Below are positions 3,112 to 33,498 of a DNA stretch of 64,000 nucleotides, in pieces (the first letter of the stretch is position 1; every line of letters starts with the position of its first letter). The notes under the pieces were generated by a model, which saw only the letters and a list, made by a program, of their open reading frames with translations, did no database searches and was not told where the DNA came from. Source of the stretch: a virus. Made by a program: the position numbers and the translations under genes. Location: positions 1 through 64,000 of IMG/VR virus record IMGVR_UViG_3300025121_000045. One strand, 5' to 3'.

Positions 3112-3602
3112 TTTTGATTACCGATGTAAAATACGATGAGGACAATCATACAGCGAAAGCTGTTGGAGTATTATTTGAAAATTGGACTGACGAAAGACAC
3201 GTCAGGTCTCATTATGTTATTTTAGATGGTTTTGGACCGTATGTACCAGGAGAGTTCTATAAACGAGAGTTGCCGTGTCTACTATCCTTGTTAGAAGAAA
3301 TTCCAGAACCTTTGGAAGCTATAATTGTTGACGGGTATGTAGACTTGGAACAAGATCATCCAGGTCTGGGAAGACATTTATATAATGCAATATCCCAGAA
3401 AACCATGGTCATAGGTATTGCAAAAAGCAGGTATGCTTCTGCAAATGCTATTCAAATTTTAAGGGGCGACAGTAAGAATCCATTACATGTTACCTCTACC
3501 CAAGATGTTGAAGTTATATCTCAAAAAGTTAAGAGTATGGCAGGTCCATATAGATTGCCTTACATGGTAAAATTAGTAGATCAATTGACTAGAGAGATAT
3601 AA
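3108..3602 (+). CDS. nfi: endonuclease V-like protein
   Basis: DVKY, YVPGEFYKRELP, VDGY, PGLG, IGIAKS motifs; ATG at 3108 overlaps upstream stop. Confidence 0.85.
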   Translation: MILITDVKYDEDNHTAKAVGVLFENWTDERHVRSHYVILDGFGPYVPGEFYKRELPCLLSLLEEIPEPLEAIIVDGYVDLEQDHPGLGRHLYNAISQKTMVIGIAKSRYASANAIQILRGDSKNPLHVTSTQDVEVISQKVKSMAGPYRLPYMVKLVDQLTREI

Positions 3603-3869
3603 ATGCTTGAAGATATTGAAAATGAAGAAATAGAACTTGGTCCATGGGAACCATGTCTTGACAATCACAATTGGATAATTGCGGTCGGGTGGGTCGGAAG
3701 ATATAGATGTGCAGAGTGTGGATCATTGGGGTATAAGAAACATGTTTTGGGCGGTAACATAAAGAGAAAACCGGTCGTAGCTATATATGTATGTCCAAGA
3801 TGTAAAGGCCCTACAACACGATATTCAAGGAAGGCTCAAGCATGTCCGAAATGCCAACAAAACCAATAA
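3603..3869 (+). CDS. zinc-finger protein
   Basis: Three CxxC pairs. Confidence 0.6.
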   Translation: MLEDIENEEIELGPWEPCLDNHNWIIAVGWVGRYRCAECGSLGYKKHVLGGNIKRKPVVAIYVCPRCKGPTTRYSRKAQACPKCQQNQ

Positions 3870-4354
3870 GACCAGAAATAAGTTATAAGACTCCAATTTG
3901 GGCACATTATAATGGGGTTGAAAATCTTACAGTTCAAATAGGGTCTGTCACAGAAGATTTTTATTCACGTAATGACTTTGATGACCCAAAGTATACCCAA
4001 TTATTAGGGTTGTTAGACATTCCTTTAGATGGAGATTGTGACGATGAACCTTGGTATCCAGACATTCCTCTTGAAGTTTTAGAAAAATTTTCCGAATTAT
4101 ATGGGTGTGTTCGATCTACTGTTAGAATTGCATTCCATGCAAGTTCTTTTGAACTACATATGTTTATAGGTGGCACTATTTTACATTCGGAAGAAGAATG
4201 TAAAATAGTGTTAGAAAAAGAAGAACAAGCAAAATTAGAACACAAAGAGAAGTCTAAACAATATGAAAAAGACCTACGTCAATATAACATAGACCTAGCA
4301 AGATGGAAATTAGACCAAGCAGAACAAGACCTAAAGAAGTTAGAATCACTCTGA
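3842..4354 (+). CDS. hypothetical protein with C-terminal coiled coil
   Basis: 170 aa ORF in operon. Confidence 0.65.
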   Translation: MSEMPTKPIRPEISYKTPIWAHYNGVENLTVQIGSVTEDFYSRNDFDDPKYTQLLGLLDIPLDGDCDDEPWYPDIPLEVLEKFSELYGCVRSTVRIAFHASSFELHMFIGGTILHSEEECKIVLEKEEQAKLEHKEKSKQYEKDLRQYNIDLARWKLDQAEQDLKKLESL

Positions 4355-5876: not shown

Positions 5877-6286
5877 TGACAACACATAAAGTTATGTTGG
5901 TCGAAGACCGTCCTCAAGACATGAGGTTAACTGTTAGAGCTTTAAAAAAAGCTGGGTATGACGTTGATGTTGTTATGGCAAGCCATGGCAAAGAAGCTGT
6001 TGATATGTTAGATGCGGGTTCTAACCCAGATTTAATTCTTCTAGATTGGAGATTACCGATCATGTCGGGAGAAGAAGTATTAAAGTATGTACGATCAAAA
6101 GAAAACATGAATATCATACCTGTAATAGTATTAACCACCAGTAGTGATTCCGAAGATGTTGATGTTGCGTATAGATCCGGGTGTAATGCATATCTCACTA
6201 AACCTGTAAACACTACAGAGTTTGACGACACAATCGAGGCTTTGGGGTTGTTCTGGCTTAAGAAAGTAATTCTACCTAAAAGATAA
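5876..6286 (+). CDS. single-domain response regulator (Rcp1-like)
   Basis: LLVED-like start, DLILLD.RLP, VLTTS, NAYLTKP, FW. Confidence 0.92.
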   Translation: MTTHKVMLVEDRPQDMRLTVRALKKAGYDVDVVMASHGKEAVDMLDAGSNPDLILLDWRLPIMSGEEVLKYVRSKENMNIIPVIVLTTSSDSEDVDVAYRSGCNAYLTKPVNTTEFDDTIEALGLFWLKKVILPKR

Positions 6287-8568
6287 TGATAATGAAACAA
6301 TTTAGAATATTGATAGTACTCCTACTAACATCTTTATTTTTAGGTTATGGAACTTTGGGGTTATATAACATTCAATGGTTCTCTAATAGTATAAGCCCTT
6401 TCTGGGCTCTCGCATTAATTTATATAAGTGGTACTTTATCTTTTTTCACATACTCTGCTATATCAGTCCAAATAATTTATCTCACAAGAAAATATAAATC
6501 CGAGATAGGTAAGAGCAATACCTGGGTCTTAATTTTCTTAGCTTTATTCTTATTTTTGTGTGGTGTTGGACATTTTATAGACGCTACATATATATCTAAC
6601 AGGTCAGTAGACAGTATAAAAGCACTTGGTAAAGTAGCAGCCACTCTTACGACGTTGACAACAGCACTTTTATTTTGGCCACTAGCAGTAGCTGGAGTAA
6701 ATGCTTTTTATGCGCTTAAGAAAGAGCGAGACTCTTATGAATACGAAGCTTTTAGATGGACGAACCTTCCTGGTACTCTCATGGCTACTCAAAAATTACA
6801 AGACCCTAATGGATGTTATTTATGGGTCAATAAAGAATGGGAGACCTTATTAGGATGGACTAGTGAAGAAATGGCCTCAAGACCTTGGAGAACGTTTGTA
6901 CATCCTTCGGATGTACCTATCTGTTCGAATATAGATGGATCAAAGATAGCTTTACCTACGTGCATGTCTGGGTACTTGATTAGATACAGACATAAGGTAG
7001 ATAATCAAGATGGGAGTCCTAGATGGGTATGGACTAGATGGGACGCGGTAGCGTTCCAAAGCACAGGACTGGTATATGGTAGTGCTAGAGATGTAACGGA
7101 TCAAATAGAGGCATCTAGAGAAGCTAATATAACCAGAGCTCACTTAGATAACTGGCTTACAGTCTTTCCAGATTTATTGGTGACTGTAATTTTAGACGAC
7201 ACACCAGTAGAAAAGAAAAGATATTTATGGGTAAGTCCATCTTGCGAAAATTTACTAGGCTGGACCCCGGAAGAGCTAAAGGATGTTACCCTTGTCTCTT
7301 TAATACATCCAGAGGATTTTAATAGTTTCTTGAAAGAATATGCACGGTATGATAACCAATCAGAGGATAGGGTATCCAAGATCACTTTTAGACAAAGAAT
7401 AAAGCATAAGAATGGGGAGTGGAGATGGATAGAGTGGTCCGGTGTTTCTGACCATGATCTCAAAATGACTTATAATGTAGGCCGCGACATAACTGAAATG
7501 GTACATAGACAACAGTCTTTAGAGATGTCAGAAAATAGATTTAAGTCTGTCATGCACAATGCTCCTATAGGGTTAGCCCTTATATCTATAGATGGAAGAT
7601 GGTTAGATATAAATTTTTCTTTGTGCAGTATTGTTGGGTATGCTCAACAGGACTTATTAAAAAAGTCTTTCACAGAAATAACACACCCTTTAGATCTTAA
7701 TACGGACAAAGAGTTGATAAAAGATTTGATATCTAGAAAAATATCAAAATACCAAATAGTGAAAAGATGCATACATAAAAAAGGCCATATTATAACACTA
7801 GACATAAGCACGAGCCTGGTTTGGACTGGCGATATACCCCAACATTTTATATTACAGGTTAGAGACCTAACTGAAGAAGTTAAACAACAAGAAGAAATAG
7901 AAAGTCACATTAGAGACCTGGAACAGTTCGCTTCAGTAGCTGCTCATCAATTAAAATCTCCACCTAGAACCATATATGGTATGGCTCAAGCCTTGTTAGA
8001 AGACTATGGCAATGTAATAGGAACTGATGGAAAAGTGTTTCTAGAAGACATAAAACAAGATGCTGAAAACATGGCAGAAGTAGTAGACGGTTTATATAGG
8101 TTCTCTAAGGTACGTACATCTAGCGATATTGAAAAAGAAAATGTTGATTTGAATAAGGTTATTAATGCTATCTGTTCTGTACGTAAAGAGCAAAGTAAAA
8201 GTATCTCTGTAAAGGTACTAAATGTGTTACCAATAATAACCTCAAATAAGATACTGATACAAGAAGTGTTCTATAATCTCATAGACAATGGGTTAAAGTT
8301 CAATAGTTCAGAAGAACCTTCAATAGAAATAACTTCTGAAGACGCGGAGTACAGCCATGTCATATCCGTGAAAGATAATGGCATCGGAATACCTCGGGCC
8401 TATTATCCTAAATTGTTCAAAATGTTTGAAAGATTACACCCTACTTATCCAGGTACCGGTGTAGGACTTTCAGTAGCCGCTTCTATAGTTCAGAAACTAG
8501 ATGGAAAAATAGAAGTAGAATCAGAGCCTGGACAAGGTACTACATTTATTCTATATTTTCCGAAATAA
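6286..8568 (+). CDS. membrane sensor histidine kinase: ethylene-receptor-like TM domain, 3 PAS/PAC, HisKA, HATPase
   Basis: CGVGH TM motif; HP.D PAS motifs; H-box AAHQLKSP; NLIDNGLKF, DNGIGI, GTGVGL boxes. Confidence 0.92.
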   Translation: MIMKQFRILIVLLLTSLFLGYGTLGLYNIQWFSNSISPFWALALIYISGTLSFFTYSAISVQIIYLTRKYKSEIGKSNTWVLIFLALFLFLCGVGHFIDATYISNRSVDSIKALGKVAATLTTLTTALLFWPLAVAGVNAFYALKKERDSYEYEAFRWTNLPGTLMATQKLQDPNGCYLWVNKEWETLLGWTSEEMASRPWRTFVHPSDVPICSNIDGSKIALPTCMSGYLIRYRHKVDNQDGSPRWVWTRWDAVAFQSTGLVYGSARDVTDQIEASREANITRAHLDNWLTVFPDLLVTVILDDTPVEKKRYLWVSPSCENLLGWTPEELKDVTLVSLIHPEDFNSFLKEYARYDNQSEDRVSKITFRQRIKHKNGEWRWIEWSGVSDHDLKMTYNVGRDITEMVHRQQSLEMSENRFKSVMHNAPIGLALISIDGRWLDINFSLCSIVGYAQQDLLKKSFTEITHPLDLNTDKELIKDLISRKISKYQIVKRCIHKKGHIITLDISTSLVWTGDIPQHFILQVRDLTEEVKQQEEIESHIRDLEQFASVAAHQLKSPPRTIYGMAQALLEDYGNVIGTDGKVFLEDIKQDAENMAEVVDGLYRFSKVRTSSDIEKENVDLNKVINAICSVRKEQSKSISVKVLNVLPIITSNKILIQEVFYNLIDNGLKFNSSEEPSIEITSEDAEYSHVISVKDNGIGIPRAYYPKLFKMFERLHPTYPGTGVGLSVAASIVQKLDGKIEVESEPGQGTTFILYFPK

Positions 8569-16295: not shown

Positions 16296-17561
16296 ATGTT
16301 AGATGTACGTTTCGTTGTAGAACATACAGATAAGATTATAGAGAATCTTAGAAAAAGACATACAGATTTTAATTTAACTCATCTCCTGAACCTCTTTAGT
16401 CTTCATAAAAACACCCTTCACAAGTTAGAGATGCTCAAAACTGACCGTAACAGGTTAGCTTCCGAGATAGGCAGACTTAAAATACAGAAACAAGACACGA
16501 CTATTCTTCAAGAACATGCTAGAGAATTAGGAAACGACATCAAGTCTTTTGAGATTGACTGTAAAGACTTGGCGGATAGGCTACATTCTCAAGTTTTGTT
16601 ACTGCCTAATCTATTGCAAGACACCGTGCCAGACGGCGTTGACGCTAACGACAATGTGTTAGTACGTACTTGGAATACCCCTACAGCATTTACCTTTACT
16701 CCAAAGGCCCACAACGAGATTGGGGAGGGTTTAGGTATTATAGATTTCCAAAGAGCGGCCAAGATTTCTGGGTCCCGGTTTGCCGTCCTACGAGGAGCGG
16801 GAGCTGCTCTAGAACGAGCTTTGATAAATTTATTCTTAGATACACATATAAGACACGGGTACCAAGAAGTTATGGTTCCATATCTTGTCAATGCCACTAC
16901 TATGACAGGTACAGGTCAACTCCCAAAATTTGAGGAAGACTTATTCAAAATACAAGGATCTGACCTGTACCTAATACCGACTGCAGAGGTCCCGGTCACC
17001 AATCTACATGCAGGAGAGATTTTAGCAGAAGATGGCCTACCCCTCAGGTATTGTGCTTTTACCCCATGTTTTAGAGCAGAAGCCGGTTCGCATGGACGCG
17101 ATGTAAAAGGTTTGATCCGTCAACATCAATTCCATAAGGTAGAGCTGGTACAGTTTGCACATCCAGACCAATCTCGAAATATTCATGAAGAATTAGTTAG
17201 GTATGTTGAGTGTTTGTTAGAGCTGCTTCAACTACCATACAGGACTATGCATTTATGTGCGGGTGATACAGGCAATGGGTCTTCTAGGACATACGACATA
17301 GAAGTATGGATGCCTGGACAGAATCAGTATAGGGAGATATCCTCTTGTTCTAATTTTCTAGATTATCAGGCACGTAGAGCCAATATCAGATTTAGACCTA
17401 AAGTCGGTGGTAAACCTAGATATGTACATACCCTGAATGCTTCTGGTTTGGCCATAGGCCGAACTATGGTGGCTATCTTAGAAAACTATCAACAAGAAGA
17501 TGGGTCTGTCATAGTTCCAGAAGTTTTAAGACCTTATATGCATATGGATGTCATAAAATGA
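16296..17561 (+). CDS. serS: seryl-tRNA synthetase
   Basis: MLDVRF start with GAGG SD; [47 protein letters not shown]. Confidence 0.97.
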
Positions 17562-21348: not shown

Positions 21349-21544
21349 TAAAGGTACTCAAATGTTTAAGGTGAAGGTACTTGGGGATAGAGACTCTGAT
21401 TATGATACGGCTGAAAGCATGACAGACTCTATTCACATAGAGGTTGAGAGCAATGGAGGTGATTCTGTAAAGTTTTATGACGGTCCTGCTTCAGATGTTT
21501 ATGCTTGGGCAGAAAATCTTGGTTTTTATGTGGAAGTCGAATGA
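21332..21544 (+). CDS. hypothetical protein
   Basis: ORF track. Confidence 0.5.
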   Translation: MSRKFNKGTQMFKVKVLGDRDSDYDTAESMTDSIHIEVESNGGDSVKFYDGPASDVYAWAENLGFYVEVE

Positions 21545-21882
21545 AAACGAAATCTTATATCTTAATTATGACTTCAACCAATGGCCATAAATACGGTTAT
21601 GTAGAAGAGTCCTTTAGTATGTGTCTTGACCCAAACCGAGTACGTGTATTCACAAAGACTAAGTACTCTAGGAAGACATACAATGCTGACACAGTAAATA
21701 TGCTACAGGATGCGAAGCTAGGAGTATGGAAGGATGTACATGGTAAATTCGTACACATCGTGAAAGCCGAAGTTTACCGTGTAGGGTCTAAAAACTGTCC
21801 CTTTAAGATTGATTGGAGAGAAAGATTTATAGACTCCACTTCAAAGTATAATTGGAGGAATTTGCCGTTTGTGAGTAAGTAG
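21541..21882 (+). CDS. hypothetical protein
   Basis: ATG 21541 overlapping upstream stop. Confidence 0.6.
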   Translation: MKTKSYILIMTSTNGHKYGYVEESFSMCLDPNRVRVFTKTKYSRKTYNADTVNMLQDAKLGVWKDVHGKFVHIVKAEVYRVGSKNCPFKIDWRERFIDSTSKYNWRNLPFVSK

Positions 21883-21886
21883 AATA

Positions 21887-22166
21887 TACCAGAGGCCCGT
21901 TCGCCGTGATCTAGAACAGGAAGTTGACCCTTAATTTTGAGGTAACTCAAAGCGCAGGGTACGTTAGGTAACTTAAAAATCATATGCGTGTAATCGTAAA
22001 AAGATGCATATGGAAATAGAGACCATTACCTAACATTGTAGAGAGATGACAAATATTGTGTATACGTTCTACAAATACATCCGTATATGTGATATGAGGA
22101 ATTTCTTTACGACAAAGCCGTTCGATGCCTAGATCTTTCAGGGTTCGACTCCTTGATCTGGTACTA
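21887..22166 (+). ncRNA. tmRNA-shaped structured RNA with tRNA-like domain
   Basis: TACCAGA/TCTGGTA ends, GATCTAG/CTAGATC, T arm CAGGG-TTCGACT-CCTTG, several internal helices. Confidence 0.65.
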
Positions 22167-22204
22167 ATGTTTTCAACCTATAAACCTTAACTATACTTAT
22201 AACT

Positions 22205-22393
22205 ATGAATGTGCAACTTTTTACTCAATATATTTCAAAGTCTCTAAAAACGAGACCTCACATCGTAGAAAGTATTTTCGATAAAAGCAAACTGGAAGAG
22301 CTTAAAAAATCATTTTTATCTCTTAAAAATGTACATGCTGTAGAAATTTGTTGAGAAAATGATATTGTAATTCTTACGGTCTTAGAAGATTAA
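22205..22393 (+). pseudogene. paralog of 21157 ORF interrupted by TGA at 22352
   Basis: MNVQLFTQYISK...VEIC*ENDIVILTVLED*. Confidence 0.55.
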
Positions 22394-22470
22394 TTATAAC
22401 CTCTCTTAGAAAAATCTACCTCAAATCGTTTCTTCAATATTACAACAACCTTCAACGAACGGAAGTACAA

Positions 22471-23964
22471 ATGAAAGCCTGTAATAAAGGGACTTGCCGT
22501 TTTGCAAAACCCCTTGTTCTAAAGCGTGCATACGGAATATGCACCGACTCTGATGCCAACCACAATAAAGCATATAGCGCAGAGCTTCATCAAGACGAAG
22601 GAACATCAAATTATACGGTGTTCGTGAGTTACGGACGTGTAGGCGAGAAGATGGCTGAGCGCGAGTACCTGAATGATAACGGCTCTGCTCTTTCTCAGTA
22701 TGAAGCTGAACAGCAGTACAATGATCTTCTGAAGGACAAGTTCGGAGCCCCTAAGTGCTCTGCTTGTGGTAATAAGACGGATGTCGCAGGCGTTATGACC
22801 TGCTCCAAATGTAGCCGCAAGTACAACTTCAAGGACTATACCAAGAAATATGTGCCCGTTGACCTGGCCCAGGCGAAGGTAGGGTCAGACCACGGCAAGG
22901 CTATTGTGGATACCACCAAACTTACCACAGCATCGCAGGCTCAAGTACAGCCGGATCCGACAACTGTAATGTCAACGCCTTCTCTGGCACGTGAGATTGT
23001 GTCCTTCCTAACACATATTTTCGAGGAAGCTGGACAGGCAGCTCGATCCAGTTTGAATACTGGAGTGCTCAAGGCAACCGCTGACAATCCCCTTGGAACT
23101 CTGAGCCAGGCTCAATTGGAAGACGGTAGGGGTATTCTTGATGAGATTCGCCTTTTGCTATTAGATGGTAAAGACCATGCAACTTTGATGAAATTGACCA
23201 CTGGGTTTTATTCTACAATCCCACAGCAAATCGATAGACGGCCGGATTGGAATAGGCTTTGTATCGATAATTTGCCAAAGCTTAGTACGGCTATTGACCT
23301 TATTGACCTTCTTTCAGATGTAAAAGGAGTTCAGACTTCGTTCAAAAGTGGCACTACTGATTGGGACCGTTATGACAGTGTTGGAGCAGACCTTGAAGTA
23401 GTAGACCGTAATGATCCAGTATGGAAAAAGCTTGAGCAGAATGCTTTGAATTCTCGGGCACATAACCATCGTCAGTATGACCGAATGAAGGTTCGCAACA
23501 TTTTTAAGCTTCGTGTTTCTTCTCAGAAAGACCACAACTGGCTTGATCCGAATAAGGTGGGCAATGTGCAGGCTTTGTACCACGGTAGTCGTAATGCAAA
23601 CATCCTTGGTATTACGACTAAGGGCTTGCTTCTACGGCCTCCGGGAGCCGTAATTACAGGAAGCATGTATGGAGCGGGACTATATTTTGGGTCGAATTCA
23701 TCAAAGAGTCTACAATATTCTCAGGGCGGTTGGGGGGGTACAGGCAACAGAAGCAATAATGTTTATCTTTATGTTTGCTCCCTTGCGCTAGGACGTATTA
23801 AAGAATACACGACGGCTCAGACACATTTGACTGCCCCACCTTCTGGGTATCATTCAGTAAAGGGGGTTCCTGGGGTACAGCTGGTAAATGAAGAATATAT
23901 TGTTTATACTCTTCGTCAGCATCGACTCGACTATATTATGGACATTAGCCCTGACGGACGTTAA
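22471..23964 (+). CDS. poly(ADP-ribose) polymerase (WGR-like + Zn ribbon + regulatory + catalytic)
   Basis: YGRVG; NPLGTLS..QL..G..IL; FYSTIP; LYHGSR, GSMYGAGLYF, KSLQYS, NEEYIVY (H-Y-E triad). Confidence 0.92.
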   Translation: MKACNKGTCRFAKPLVLKRAYGICTDSDANHNKAYSAELHQDEGTSNYTVFVSYGRVGEKMAEREYLNDNGSALSQYEAEQQYNDLLKDKFGAPKCSACGNKTDVAGVMTCSKCSRKYNFKDYTKKYVPVDLAQAKVGSDHGKAIVDTTKLTTASQAQVQPDPTTVMSTPSLAREIVSFLTHIFEEAGQAARSSLNTGVLKATADNPLGTLSQAQLEDGRGILDEIRLLLLDGKDHATLMKLTTGFYSTIPQQIDRRPDWNRLCIDNLPKLSTAIDLIDLLSDVKGVQTSFKSGTTDWDRYDSVGADLEVVDRNDPVWKKLEQNALNSRAHNHRQYDRMKVRNIFKLRVSSQKDHNWLDPNKVGNVQALYHGSRNANILGITTKGLLLRPPGAVITGSMYGAGLYFGSNSSKSLQYSQGGWGGTGNRSNNVYLYVCSLALGRIKEYTTAQTHLTAPPSGYHSVKGVPGVQLVNEEYIVYTLRQHRLDYIMDISPDGR

Positions 23965-32346: not shown

Positions 32347-33498
32347 TTGAGTAAGTCTAAAATTAAACCAATGGTAATTTTAAGATCGGCTACTACGCCA
32401 GATCTTTCTAAAAAAGAAACTCCACCTGACCTTCGGGGAGAAGGTCATAGATATTTTACAAAATCCTATGGGCCTAGTTCATACCCAAGAGACCCTGTAT
32501 TGGATAAGTTCCTTGGATGTATCCTTTGGGGTGCTTATGGAGATGCAGCAGGCATGCCTTTTGAAACAATAGCCCCGTTGGATATTTATAATCGAAATGG
32601 TAAAGCATGGGTGACCGGCCTTACCGCACCTAAGAACAGTTTTGCATCTTTTTTGAAACTTGGTGGCTGGACTGACGATACACAGCTTACCATTGCTCTA
32701 ATGGAAGCTTTTGTCGAGACTGGATCATGGGATATGAATGTTATAGCTAAACATCATGTTCGTTCCTTGGGTATCGGTGCTCGAGGATGGGGAGGATCCA
32801 CACGTGAGAGCGTGATGAGACTTAGAAGTGGAGTGCCTTGGAACAAGAGCGGTAAACCTGGTGGATCGGGTAATGGCATCCCAATGAAGATTGGAAGTGC
32901 TGGTCTTTATTTTGGTATGGTGTACTCAGATGAAATCAAGGCTGGGACATTCAAACTGAGCAGTCTCGCGAATATTGTTAAGAATATATCCATTATGACC
33001 CACAGAGATAGTAGGGCTGTAACAGCAGGTATCTTTCAGTCTATACTCATTGCTCTTGCAATGAACGATGTTGATCCCATGAGTAAATGGGATCAGATTA
33101 TGGATTATACTATAAAGGTTGAGAAACAACTTCCAGATATGGGGGAAACTTTATCGAGCCGACTTGAATTTATACCTGATAATCTACATCGAGATGTCGA
33201 ATATTTCGCACATCTGTACCGGACAGGATGTTATGTTATTGAGAGCTACCCGTTCTCTGTAGCATGTTATCTTAAATACCGAAAGAATGCACATGAAGGT
33301 GTGCTTGCTGCCGTAAACGCGGGAGGTGATTGTGACACCACTGCCGCTATTGTAGGCAACCTTTGTGGGGCTGAGGCCGGGATAGGAGATGACGCTATGG
33401 AACTGGTAAAAGACGTTGAACAATACCATAACATAGTAGGACTAGTTAATGCATTCTACAACTCAATCCGCAACGGAATGCAGCTTCAAACCCCTTGA
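32347..33498 (+). CDS. ADP-ribosylglycohydrolase (ARH/DraG family)
   Basis: GAYGDAAGMPFE, WTDDTQL, GNG..M, TH, AVNAGGDCDTTAAIVG.L.GA. Confidence 0.93.
   Translation: MSKSKIKPMVILRSATTPDLSKKETPPDLRGEGHRYFTKSYGPSSYPRDPVLDKFLGCILWGAYGDAAGMPFETIAPLDIYNRNGKAWVTGLTAPKNSFASFLKLGGWTDDTQLTIALMEAFVETGSWDMNVIAKHHVRSLGIGARGWGGSTRESVMRLRSGVPWNKSGKPGGSGNGIPMKIGSAGLYFGMVYSDEIKAGTFKLSSLANIVKNISIMTHRDSRAVTAGIFQSILIALAMNDVDPMSKWDQIMDYTIKVEKQLPDMGETLSSRLEFIPDNLHRDVEYFAHLYRTGCYVIESYPFSVACYLKYRKNAHEGVLAAVNAGGDCDTTAAIVGNLCGAEAGIGDDAMELVKDVEQYHNIVGLVNAFYNSIRNGMQLQTP

Follow-up and report, generated by a model that had tools for sequence, protein, structure and literature searches.

Here, we describe a 280-nt locus at 21887–22166, on the plus strand of a 64,000-nt stretch of viral DNA (hereafter, the window; positions 1 to 64,000 of the IMG/VR record IMGVR_UViG_3300025121_000045). 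It lies in a phage transfer RNA (tRNA) and translation island consisting of tRNA genes, a seryl-tRNA synthetase gene and an adjacent tRNA-island open reading frame (ORF). Our best explanation, which we regard as about evenly balanced between right and wrong, is that the locus is a genuine gene encoding a stable non-coding RNA of ~277–280 nt of the T4 rnaD/rnaC kind, with a large folded domain placed between two tRNA ends. This reading is carried by a significant fold, by a layout found again, with the same genes around it, in other phages, and by conservation of the RNA above that of its neighbours in one pair of relatives. The same evidence supports one proposal of an earlier note on this DNA, namely a new tRNA-like non-coding RNA; its other proposal, a divergent derivative of transfer-messenger RNA (tmRNA), fared worse and is weighed below.

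Predicted architecture of the tRNA-ended RNA

The minimum free energy (MFE) of the candidate RNA is −85.3 kcal/mol, compared with a mean of −61.2 kcal/mol (sd 4.7) for 200 dinucleotide shuffles, none of which folded as well (z −5.14). Its parts and the gene preceding it, with predicted pair probabilities (p), are as follows.

21568–21882, plus strand: upstream ORF of the phrog_15953 family (PHROG match 7.5e-10)
21887–21893, plus strand: 5′ strand of the acceptor-like stem P1, UACCAGA; 7/7 Watson–Crick pairs with 22157–22163, p 0.82–1.0
21894–21905, plus strand: D-like hairpin GGC-CCGUUC-GCC directly after P1; 3 bp, p 0.98–0.99
21908–21914, plus strand: 5′ strand of the closing helix P2, GAUCUAG, followed by GAACAGG; p 0.90–0.98
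21915–22128, plus strand: interior domain, 214 nt (predicted fold and pair probabilities)
21927–21960, plus strand: two-part hairpin with a GUAA loop, within the interior; ACCCU/AGGGU enclosing UUUGAG-GUAA-CUCAAA, p 0.94–1.0
21963–22034, plus strand: three-part hairpin, within the interior
22036–22118, plus strand: 3′ interior region of uncertain fold, with competing predicted pairings
22129–22135, plus strand: 3′ strand of P2, CUAGAUC (predicted fold and pair probabilities)
22139–22155, plus strand: T arm CAGGG-UUCGACU-CCUUG, with a canonical T loop and the G53–C61 closing pair; p 0.96–0.98
22157–22166, plus strand: 3′ strand of P1, UCUGGUA, then the tail CUA; in the other register, AUCUGGU, A73 and C74-U-A

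Acceptor stem, T arm and a closing helix by the T arm, with no anticodon arm, make up the layout of a tRNA-like domain, all three helices of which are predicted at p>0.8; the T arm can be extended by a U22138–A22156 pair. The GUUAGGUAA/UUACCUAAC and CAUAUGCGU/AUGCAUAUG helices reach pair probabilities of 0.95–1.0 and 0.96–1.0, respectively. Every stretch that the earlier note had named is present where it was placed, and the 3′ end of the RNA indeed reads ACTA. The D-like segment, which had been called stemless, turned out to be the 3-bp hairpin listed above, and the look-alikes described below have a hairpin in the same place. The UUGUAGAG/UUCUACAA helix and the loop pairing of UCGUAAA with UUUACGA, both put forward in that note, are complementary as written, but both are predicted at p 0.0, because the ensemble favours one long alternative hairpin. 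Forcing the UUGUAGAG/UUCUACAA helix costs 5.7 kcal/mol before any pseudoknot bonus, the folding tools used being ones that predict no pseudoknots. Position 3:70 of the acceptor-like stem is a C–G pair, so the RNA has no G3·U70, in agreement with the earlier note. The repeat of CCGTTCG within the RNA is, by a rough estimate, no more than chance would produce in 280 nt.

Just one ORF of 30 aa or more overlaps the RNA (21774–21983, minus strand, 69 aa), and it extends over the plus-strand gene upstream as well. A descriptor that combines a 5-bp T stem closed by G53–C61, a TTCRANN loop and a 7-bp end stem (7/7) located 60–420 nt away returned 10 rows on the plus strand of the window, nine of them representing five tRNAs in one or two registers and one the candidate locus, and no rows on the minus strand. 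The candidate is thus the only non-tRNA module of a T arm and a 7-bp end stem in 128 kb (both strands), with at least one descriptor match arising in 12 of 200 block shuffles of the window. Contigs from four DNA sequencing runs are identical to the window over 21400–22700, with no variants and no joints.

Recurrence of the layout in other phages

The stop codon of the upstream ORF lies 4 nt before the candidate RNA. Counted from the ATG common to its relatives, this ORF has 104 aa (the longest version starts from a TTG at 21505), and its relatives comprise 54 representatives at E≤1e-3. Among GenBank phages, homologs occur in KVP40-like vibriophages and in the Cronobacter phage LPCS28, always within the tRNA island. 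A tRNA starts 1 nt after the homolog in D479; a 117-nt tRNA-like gene, with ~55 nt of folded RNA in place of its anticodon region, follows it at 17 nt in KVP40 and at 5 nt in V05; and in nt-1 the same tRNA-like gene is found one small ORF further on. The ORF matches no Pfam family. A Foldseek search with its AlphaFold model (pLDDT 81.9) gave nothing below E 2.6 (best VIA Z 3.1), and thus no SmpB-like or other fold, a null result that does not show a new fold. A word-based search retrieved a single relative, 79% identical, on a 2.2-kb contig.

Beside homologs of this ORF, we identified the following look-alikes of the candidate RNA.

L076, 2831–3097: 267 nt, filling the space between the stop codon of the ORF homolog, which it follows directly, and the next tRNA; IMG/VR contig
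L229, 4872–5138: directly after the ORF homolog; IMG/VR contig related to L076
LPCS28 (L071), 3730–3996: 267 nt, in a gap lacking annotation, with the ORF homolog 23 nt downstream; ends in G-CCA

In the L076 RNA, the first 7 nt pair at 7/7 positions with the 7 nt that follow the T arm GGAGG-UUCGACU-CCUCC, a 4-bp hairpin stands directly after the 5′ strand, a 5-bp closing helix lies right before the T arm, and the fold z is −3.29; Rfam, including its intron and ribozyme families, finds nothing on it. The candidate (28–34) and L076 (25–31) have the heptamer GAACAGG in common, located where the closing helix meets the interior. A search of IMG/VR for the pattern GAACAGG..GTTC..GGTTCGANTCC, consisting of this 7-mer, its partner GUUC and the T loop, returned 52 stretches. 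The stem test left four of them: L138 (on the L076 contig), L229, L203 and L230. On inspection, the latter two proved to be a tRNA whose 5′ strand is repeated and an array of tRNAs, and they were set aside.

The L076 and L229 RNAs are identical at 261/267 positions (97.8%), compared with 316/381 (82.9%) for the ORF and 75/86 (87.2%) for the tRNA-Leu that follows the RNA (Fisher p 1.7e-10 and 3.5e-4, respectively), and differences between the contigs restart 4 nt beyond the annotated 3′ end of the RNA. Two of the six changes lie in the outer helix of the two-part hairpin, and both keep the pair (G·U to A–U and C–G to U·G). Two explanations fit this near-identity: the entire RNA is under strong constraint, or precisely this segment was transferred recently.

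A similar arrangement exists in phage T4, where rnaD (species 2, 119 nt) and rnaC (species 1, 139 nt) are annotated 6 nt apart, right after tRNA-Arg, in a tRNA and translation island. RNAC and RNAD are expressed stable RNAs without a known function (PMC9697503, PMC3014915). Judging from their sequences, the two may form one tRNA-ended unit of 264 nt. The rnaD 5′ end pairs with the rnaC 3′ end at 7/8 positions, a 4-bp hairpin (CCGG-GUCGCUA-CCGG) comes directly after the 5′ strand, rnaC ends with a canonical T arm (CCGGG-UUCGAAU-CCCGG) before the 3′ strand, and the joined unit has a fold z of −4.37. We did not find this reading in the literature searched. The unit is covered to at least 80% in 680 of the 806 GenBank phage records with a match. 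Across six T-even phages, the 3′ strand of the end stem is invariant, and two changes in the 5′ strand keep the pairing (G·U to A–U in four of the six, A–U to G·U in one). One of the hairpins of rnaD (~50 nt) is swapped for unrelated sequence in DalCa, G29 and KNP5 (L355–L359 versus L196), with the rest of rnaD–rnaC nearly invariant; the G29 record annotates the 3′ part of rnaC as a 94-nt tRNA-Lys.

All five RNAs compared share an end stem, an immediate hairpin and a 3′ T arm around a span of 229–245 nt. The hairpin follows P1 directly in L076, LPCS28 and T4 rnaD, as it does in the candidate, and P1 and the T stem are separated by 245 nt in the candidate, 231 nt in L076 and L229, 235 nt in LPCS28 and 229 nt in T4 rnaD+rnaC. 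The acceptor stems are unrelated in sequence (UACCAGA, CGGGCGA, GCUCGU and UGAGAAAC), position 3:70 being G–C in L076 and U–A in LPCS28, and none of the five RNAs has G3·U70. Because the acceptor sequences of the look-alikes differ completely and never include G3·U70, the ends appear to be a processing module conserved in shape, not a set of amino-acid identity elements. The T4 pair thus resembles the candidate in its tRNA and translation island, end stem, immediate hairpin and T arm, and in having no Rfam family for either rnaC or rnaD. It differs in that T4 has two annotated RNAs with a 6-nt gap, whereas the candidate has no sign of a cut; in that the T4 end stem has a mismatch, whereas P1 is paired 7/7; and in having no significant sequence similarity to the candidate. 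A tblastn search with the ORF family revealed no homolog in the T4 tRNA region (best E 0.005 over 39 aa).

The same islands of KVP40-like vibriophages and LPCS28, with the same ORF family, contain long tRNA genes (113–129 nt), some annotated as tRNA and some located in unannotated gaps.

L070, long tRNA genes: 1237–1365, 1637–1761, 1777–1888 (55.9 bits) and 3676–3788 (49.8 bits)
L072, long tRNA genes: 1989–2112, 2140–2262, 2279–2394 and 3304–3423
L074, long tRNA gene: 2832–2948
L071, long tRNA gene: 3315–3435 (56.9 bits)

Like the candidate, these genes have an intact acceptor and T arm and a folded RNA in place of the anticodon loop; unlike it, they have retained an ordinary D arm and variable loop and are still recognised as tRNAs (41–57 bits), and their insertion (45–55 nt), which has a conserved motif of its own (a hairpin followed by a CAGCA-like stretch), is four times shorter than the candidate interior.

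Searches by sequence and by partial pattern were far less productive. No match to the locus with its flanks was found by blastn in 50,697 GenBank phage records, and the RNA alone at E≤10 gave five short chance matches only. Single-protein synteny searches in IMG/VR with the poly(ADP-ribose) polymerase (PARP) encoded downstream of the RNA and with the upstream ORF found nothing. The PARP alignment A1 gave two distant loci in IMG/VR, at 28% identity, and 17 loci in metagenome contigs; those with upstream sequence (L044–L046, ~50% identity) are GC-rich and have no such RNA upstream. Two IMG/VR patterns, CGTTCGCCG..GGTTCGACTCC (12 matches) and CCGTTCG..CCGTTCG..GGTTCGA (28 matches, with ~27 expected by a rough estimate), hit only chance sequences or ordinary tRNAs. 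The GAACAGG pattern with GGTTCGACTCC gave 108 matches at 107 loci in genome contigs and no family member, nearly all of its stem-passing rows being ordinary tRNAs; one locus (L344) looks like the 3′ part of a tmRNA.

The pattern GGTTCGACTCCT-N9-ACTA was screened over at least 121 matches, and 74 of the matches listed are ordinary tRNAs. Other long tRNA-ended RNAs on unrelated viral contigs were also among the matches listed: a 185-nt RNA identical in L122 (3853–4037), L161, L169 and L195; RNAs of 131–133 nt in L120 (1241–1373), L192, L193 (5260–5392) and L114 (1665–1795); and a 118-nt RNA on the minus strand of L082. The L193 RNA combines an end stem, a hairpin and a closing helix, that is, the layout of the candidate in miniature. 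L177 and L100 were discarded as coding-like. A stricter descriptor run over the viral loci, which also brought up the LPCS28 RNA and the 224-nt RNA of G005 described below, gave 76 long matches in 1.9 Mb versus two in three shuffled copies, although its filter against tRNA-length stems dropped the candidate itself; because these loci had been chosen by T-loop patterns, the 76 matches are not fairly comparable with the four found in bacterial loci.

Competing explanations

Several observations weigh against a tRNA-ended RNA of the T4 kind. The link from the candidate to L076, LPCS28 and T4 rests on layout, size and context, with no significant similarity in sequence or to a covariance model. 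Indeed, the candidate and L076 have 20 6-mers in common, when 18.5 are expected by chance, and a MAFFT alignment of the candidate with the T4 unit aligns only the T loop. A covariance model (R1) built from a single sequence, the candidate, and its predicted structure finds only itself in G000 and nothing in G001, G002 and L044–L060; run unfiltered, it picks up ordinary tRNAs by way of its ends (8–18 bits), and the 10.2 bits that it gives the L076 RNA, over part of the span, do not exceed the scores of ordinary tRNAs. Furthermore, T4 rnaD and rnaC are annotated as two RNAs, and the MFE structure of their joined form uses an alternative to the T arm. The ORF homolog of another phage (G005, locus L075) is not followed by such an RNA. 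The identity of the L076 and L229 RNAs could stem from a recent segment transfer instead of constraint, and all six sequencing runs that carry the candidate locus, from two groundwater studies, are DNA runs.

Considering the layout, a divergent tmRNA-like RNA has to be weighed, one that is charged with an amino acid other than alanine or left uncharged and would enter stalled ribosomes, perhaps tagging through an 11-codon frame, or would serve as an SmpB or ribosome decoy. Like tmRNA (RF00023), the candidate has a tRNA-like domain free of an anticodon arm, in which a closing helix (2–3 nt before the T arm, and 14 nt from the acceptor strand) and the T arm precede the acceptor strand, and its size falls within the tmRNA range of 260–400 nt. 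In contrast to the long closing helix system of tmRNA, that of the candidate has only 7 bp, and a D-like hairpin takes the place of the GG-containing loop of the tmRNA consensus. Huge phages do carry tmRNA and SmpB, as described in the literature (PMC7162821) and as exemplified by G005 (complete, 353 kb), with a tmRNA at 65 bits and an SmpB at 180 bits. Near the ORF homolog of the same phage lies a 224-nt RNA (L075, 2039–2262) with G3·U70, a tmRNA-like 5′ region and an RF00023 score of 15.1 bits (E 0.017), which could be a second, reduced tmRNA beside the canonical tmRNA and SmpB encoded elsewhere in that genome; RF00023 scores ordinary tRNAs at 18–27 bits.

Within its helices, the candidate contains a stop-free 11-codon frame (GCA UAU GGA AAU AGA GAC CAU UAC CUA ACA UUG UAG), with an A-rich stretch before it, and the L076 RNA has a 10-codon frame that likewise ends in (C/U)UG UAG and has Asn-Arg in common with it through synonymous codons. 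However, the first codon of the 11-codon frame, the putative resume codon, is predicted to be buried in a 9-bp helix (p ~1.0), the proposed pseudoknot pairing has a p of 0.0, and one change in L229 introduces a stop codon in a different candidate frame of the L076 RNA. The database checks that the earlier note had suggested also went against a tmRNA. ARAGORN called 14 tRNAs and no tmRNA in the window, Rfam at gathering scores gave nothing at the candidate locus and, at E≤10 over 21700–22400, only noise, in three rows (CRISPR repeat, plant microRNA, human lncRNA), and RF00023 and RF00005, each searched alone in the whole record at E≤10, did not touch the locus. The same tools do recognise tmRNA elsewhere, as in G005 and in G001 (102.7 bits). 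Phage tmRNAs picked up by the descriptor (L105, L121, L141 and L214) have G3·U70, whereas position 3:70 varies among the candidate and its look-alikes (C–G, G–C, U–A), with no conserved acceptor identity. SmpB (PF01668) has no match in the 72.8-kb record, itself ~16% of the genome. We therefore consider a divergent tmRNA unlikely, while leaving it some weight because of the tmRNA-domain layout, the reduced tmRNA-like RNA in the G005 neighbourhood and the short stop-free frames. As a separate observation, the tmRNA match of G001, a 330-kb record labelled provirus, lacks both acceptor strands in the Rfam alignment (L061, 1501–1885).

The GAUCUAG/CUAGAUC helix occupies the place of an anticodon stem, so the locus might instead be a tRNA gene interrupted in its anticodon arm by a large unrecognised intron or mobile insertion whose removal would yield a working tRNA. 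Phage-island tRNA genes with 40–55-nt insertions at that place still score as tRNA, and a mobile segment could likewise explain why the L076 and L229 RNAs are nearly identical although their flanks have diverged. Nevertheless, the D region is not a tRNA D arm, neither U33 nor an anticodon-loop remnant flanks the insertion, and the gap between helix and T arm is 2–3 nt (0 in L076), compared with at least 4 nt for the variable loop of a tRNA. RF00005 is silent at the locus at E≤10, as are group I and other intron or ribozyme families for both the candidate and L076, and an insertion-free form is absent from the DNA contigs of four runs. With the D arm, anticodon loop, variable loop and ribozyme match all missing, this explanation fails, and we hold it to be improbable.

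A special case of our best explanation, one that names a role for the interior, is a tRNA mimic that would soak up or mislead a host factor acting on tRNA ends or elbows, such as a tRNA-targeting defence nuclease or transferase, RNase P or the CCA-adding enzyme. In the candidate, a flawless T arm and end stem go together with a remainder that does not resemble a tRNA, and the window carries a Lys/Arg/Ile/Tyr tRNA set of the kind with which phages counter tRNA-cleaving defences. PARIS is reported to be neutralised by a viral tRNA (PMC11464382). On the other side, nothing links the RNA to any defence system, and a decoy would not obviously need a conserved 214-nt interior, which is why we give this version little credence. 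As to a decayed tRNA remnant surrounded by chance hairpins and devoid of function, T-arm-plus-stem modules do arise in the window shuffles mentioned above, and the GenBank phage records hold no detectable sequence homolog. The fold z of −5.14, the recurrence of layout and size by the same ORF family in unrelated phages, the conservation of the L076/L229 RNA at 97.8% versus 83–87% in its flanks, and ends in which no similarity to the 14 tRNAs of the window was found make such a remnant highly improbable.

A further comparison concerns YrlA. The ends of YrlA RNA lie on the opposite side, at the Ro-binding stem. Like the candidate, YrlA and bacterial Y RNA-like mimics are non-coding RNAs with a tRNA-like T arm and an acceptor-like stem (PMC4201824); unlike them, the candidate has no match to the YrlA family RF02553 at E≤10.

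Genomic setting and significance

The window is part of a 72.8-kb record with a CheckV completeness of ~16%, which implies a very large phage genome. The record encodes genes of bacterial-phage type (DNA polymerase III delta and delta′, a RecD2-like helicase, DnaJ, an NAD-dependent ligase and a ribonucleotide reductase), together with seryl-tRNA synthetase, an AAA ATPase, a PARP with WGR and regulatory domains, an SNF2 helicase, a PAS histidine kinase and an ADP-ribosylglycohydrolase. The PARP (22471–23964), ADP-ribosylglycohydrolase (32347–33498) and PAS histidine kinase (6286–8568) constitute unusual phage cargo; the closest relatives of the PARP, at 47–56% identity, are found on contigs of up to 478 kb, and the kinase has an ethylene-receptor-like N-terminal domain.

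Fourteen tRNA genes, on which ARAGORN and Rfam concur, occupy 10287–15310, and seryl-tRNA synthetase is encoded at 16221–17561. Those named by ARAGORN include six tRNA-Lys, four tRNA-Arg, two tRNA-Ile and one tRNA-Tyr. CCA is encoded by 13 of the 14 genes, the exception at 10368–10447 ending in A-CTA, as does the candidate RNA. This gene and that at 14109–14190 have lysine anticodons (CUU, UUU) and long variable arms, that is, a class II shape. Seryl-tRNA synthetase reads the long variable arm and not the anticodon; reassignment or mischarging of these class II-shaped tRNA-Lys beside the phage synthetase is therefore possible. An additional weak tRNA-like match (RF00005, 23.3 bits, below the cut-off) lies at 15323–15394, directly after the last tRNA of the array.

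Returning to the T4-like RNA, its tRNA ends suggest how it might be made. A 12–13-bp stack of acceptor on T stem, together with the T loop, is recognised by RNase P, 3′ trimming enzymes and the CCA-adding enzyme. The RNA would be transcribed together with the upstream ORF, and the acceptor-like stem stacked on the canonical T arm would present an RNase P substrate, placing the 5′ end at or next to 21887. The same module could lead the 3′ end into the tRNA pathway, with trimming after A73-C74 and CCA completion. Such processing would cut the RNA out of its transcript and shield it from exonucleases, the tRNA-like ends thus serving as a processing and stability module and the 214-nt interior as the working part. 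The tRNA scaffold engineered for recombinant RNA in bacteria, in which the anticodon arm gives way to a foreign structured RNA while the tRNA ends provide processing and nuclease protection, follows the principle that we infer here, but it is man-made and keeps the full D arm. Given its location in a tRNA and synthetase island, our guess is that the interior is a component of tRNA handling or translation.

RNAC and RNAD of T4 are abundant and stable and have been known for decades, with neither a function nor an Rfam family. If the common layout marks one family, they would be the halves of a conserved unit that extends from T-even phages to huge groundwater phages, and the question would become testable in cultivable systems (T4 and the Cronobacter phage LPCS28). 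Our results also show that a class of tRNA-ended RNAs escapes standard annotation. A bolder version, which we rate as quite unlikely, is that the candidate is a one-piece member of an unrecognised family including T4 species 1 and 2, a second, non-alanine class of tmRNA-like RNAs that would serve large phages by entering the ribosome or by capturing an enzyme that handles tRNA. Were this the case, a function would finally be assigned to T4 RNAs known since the 1970s.

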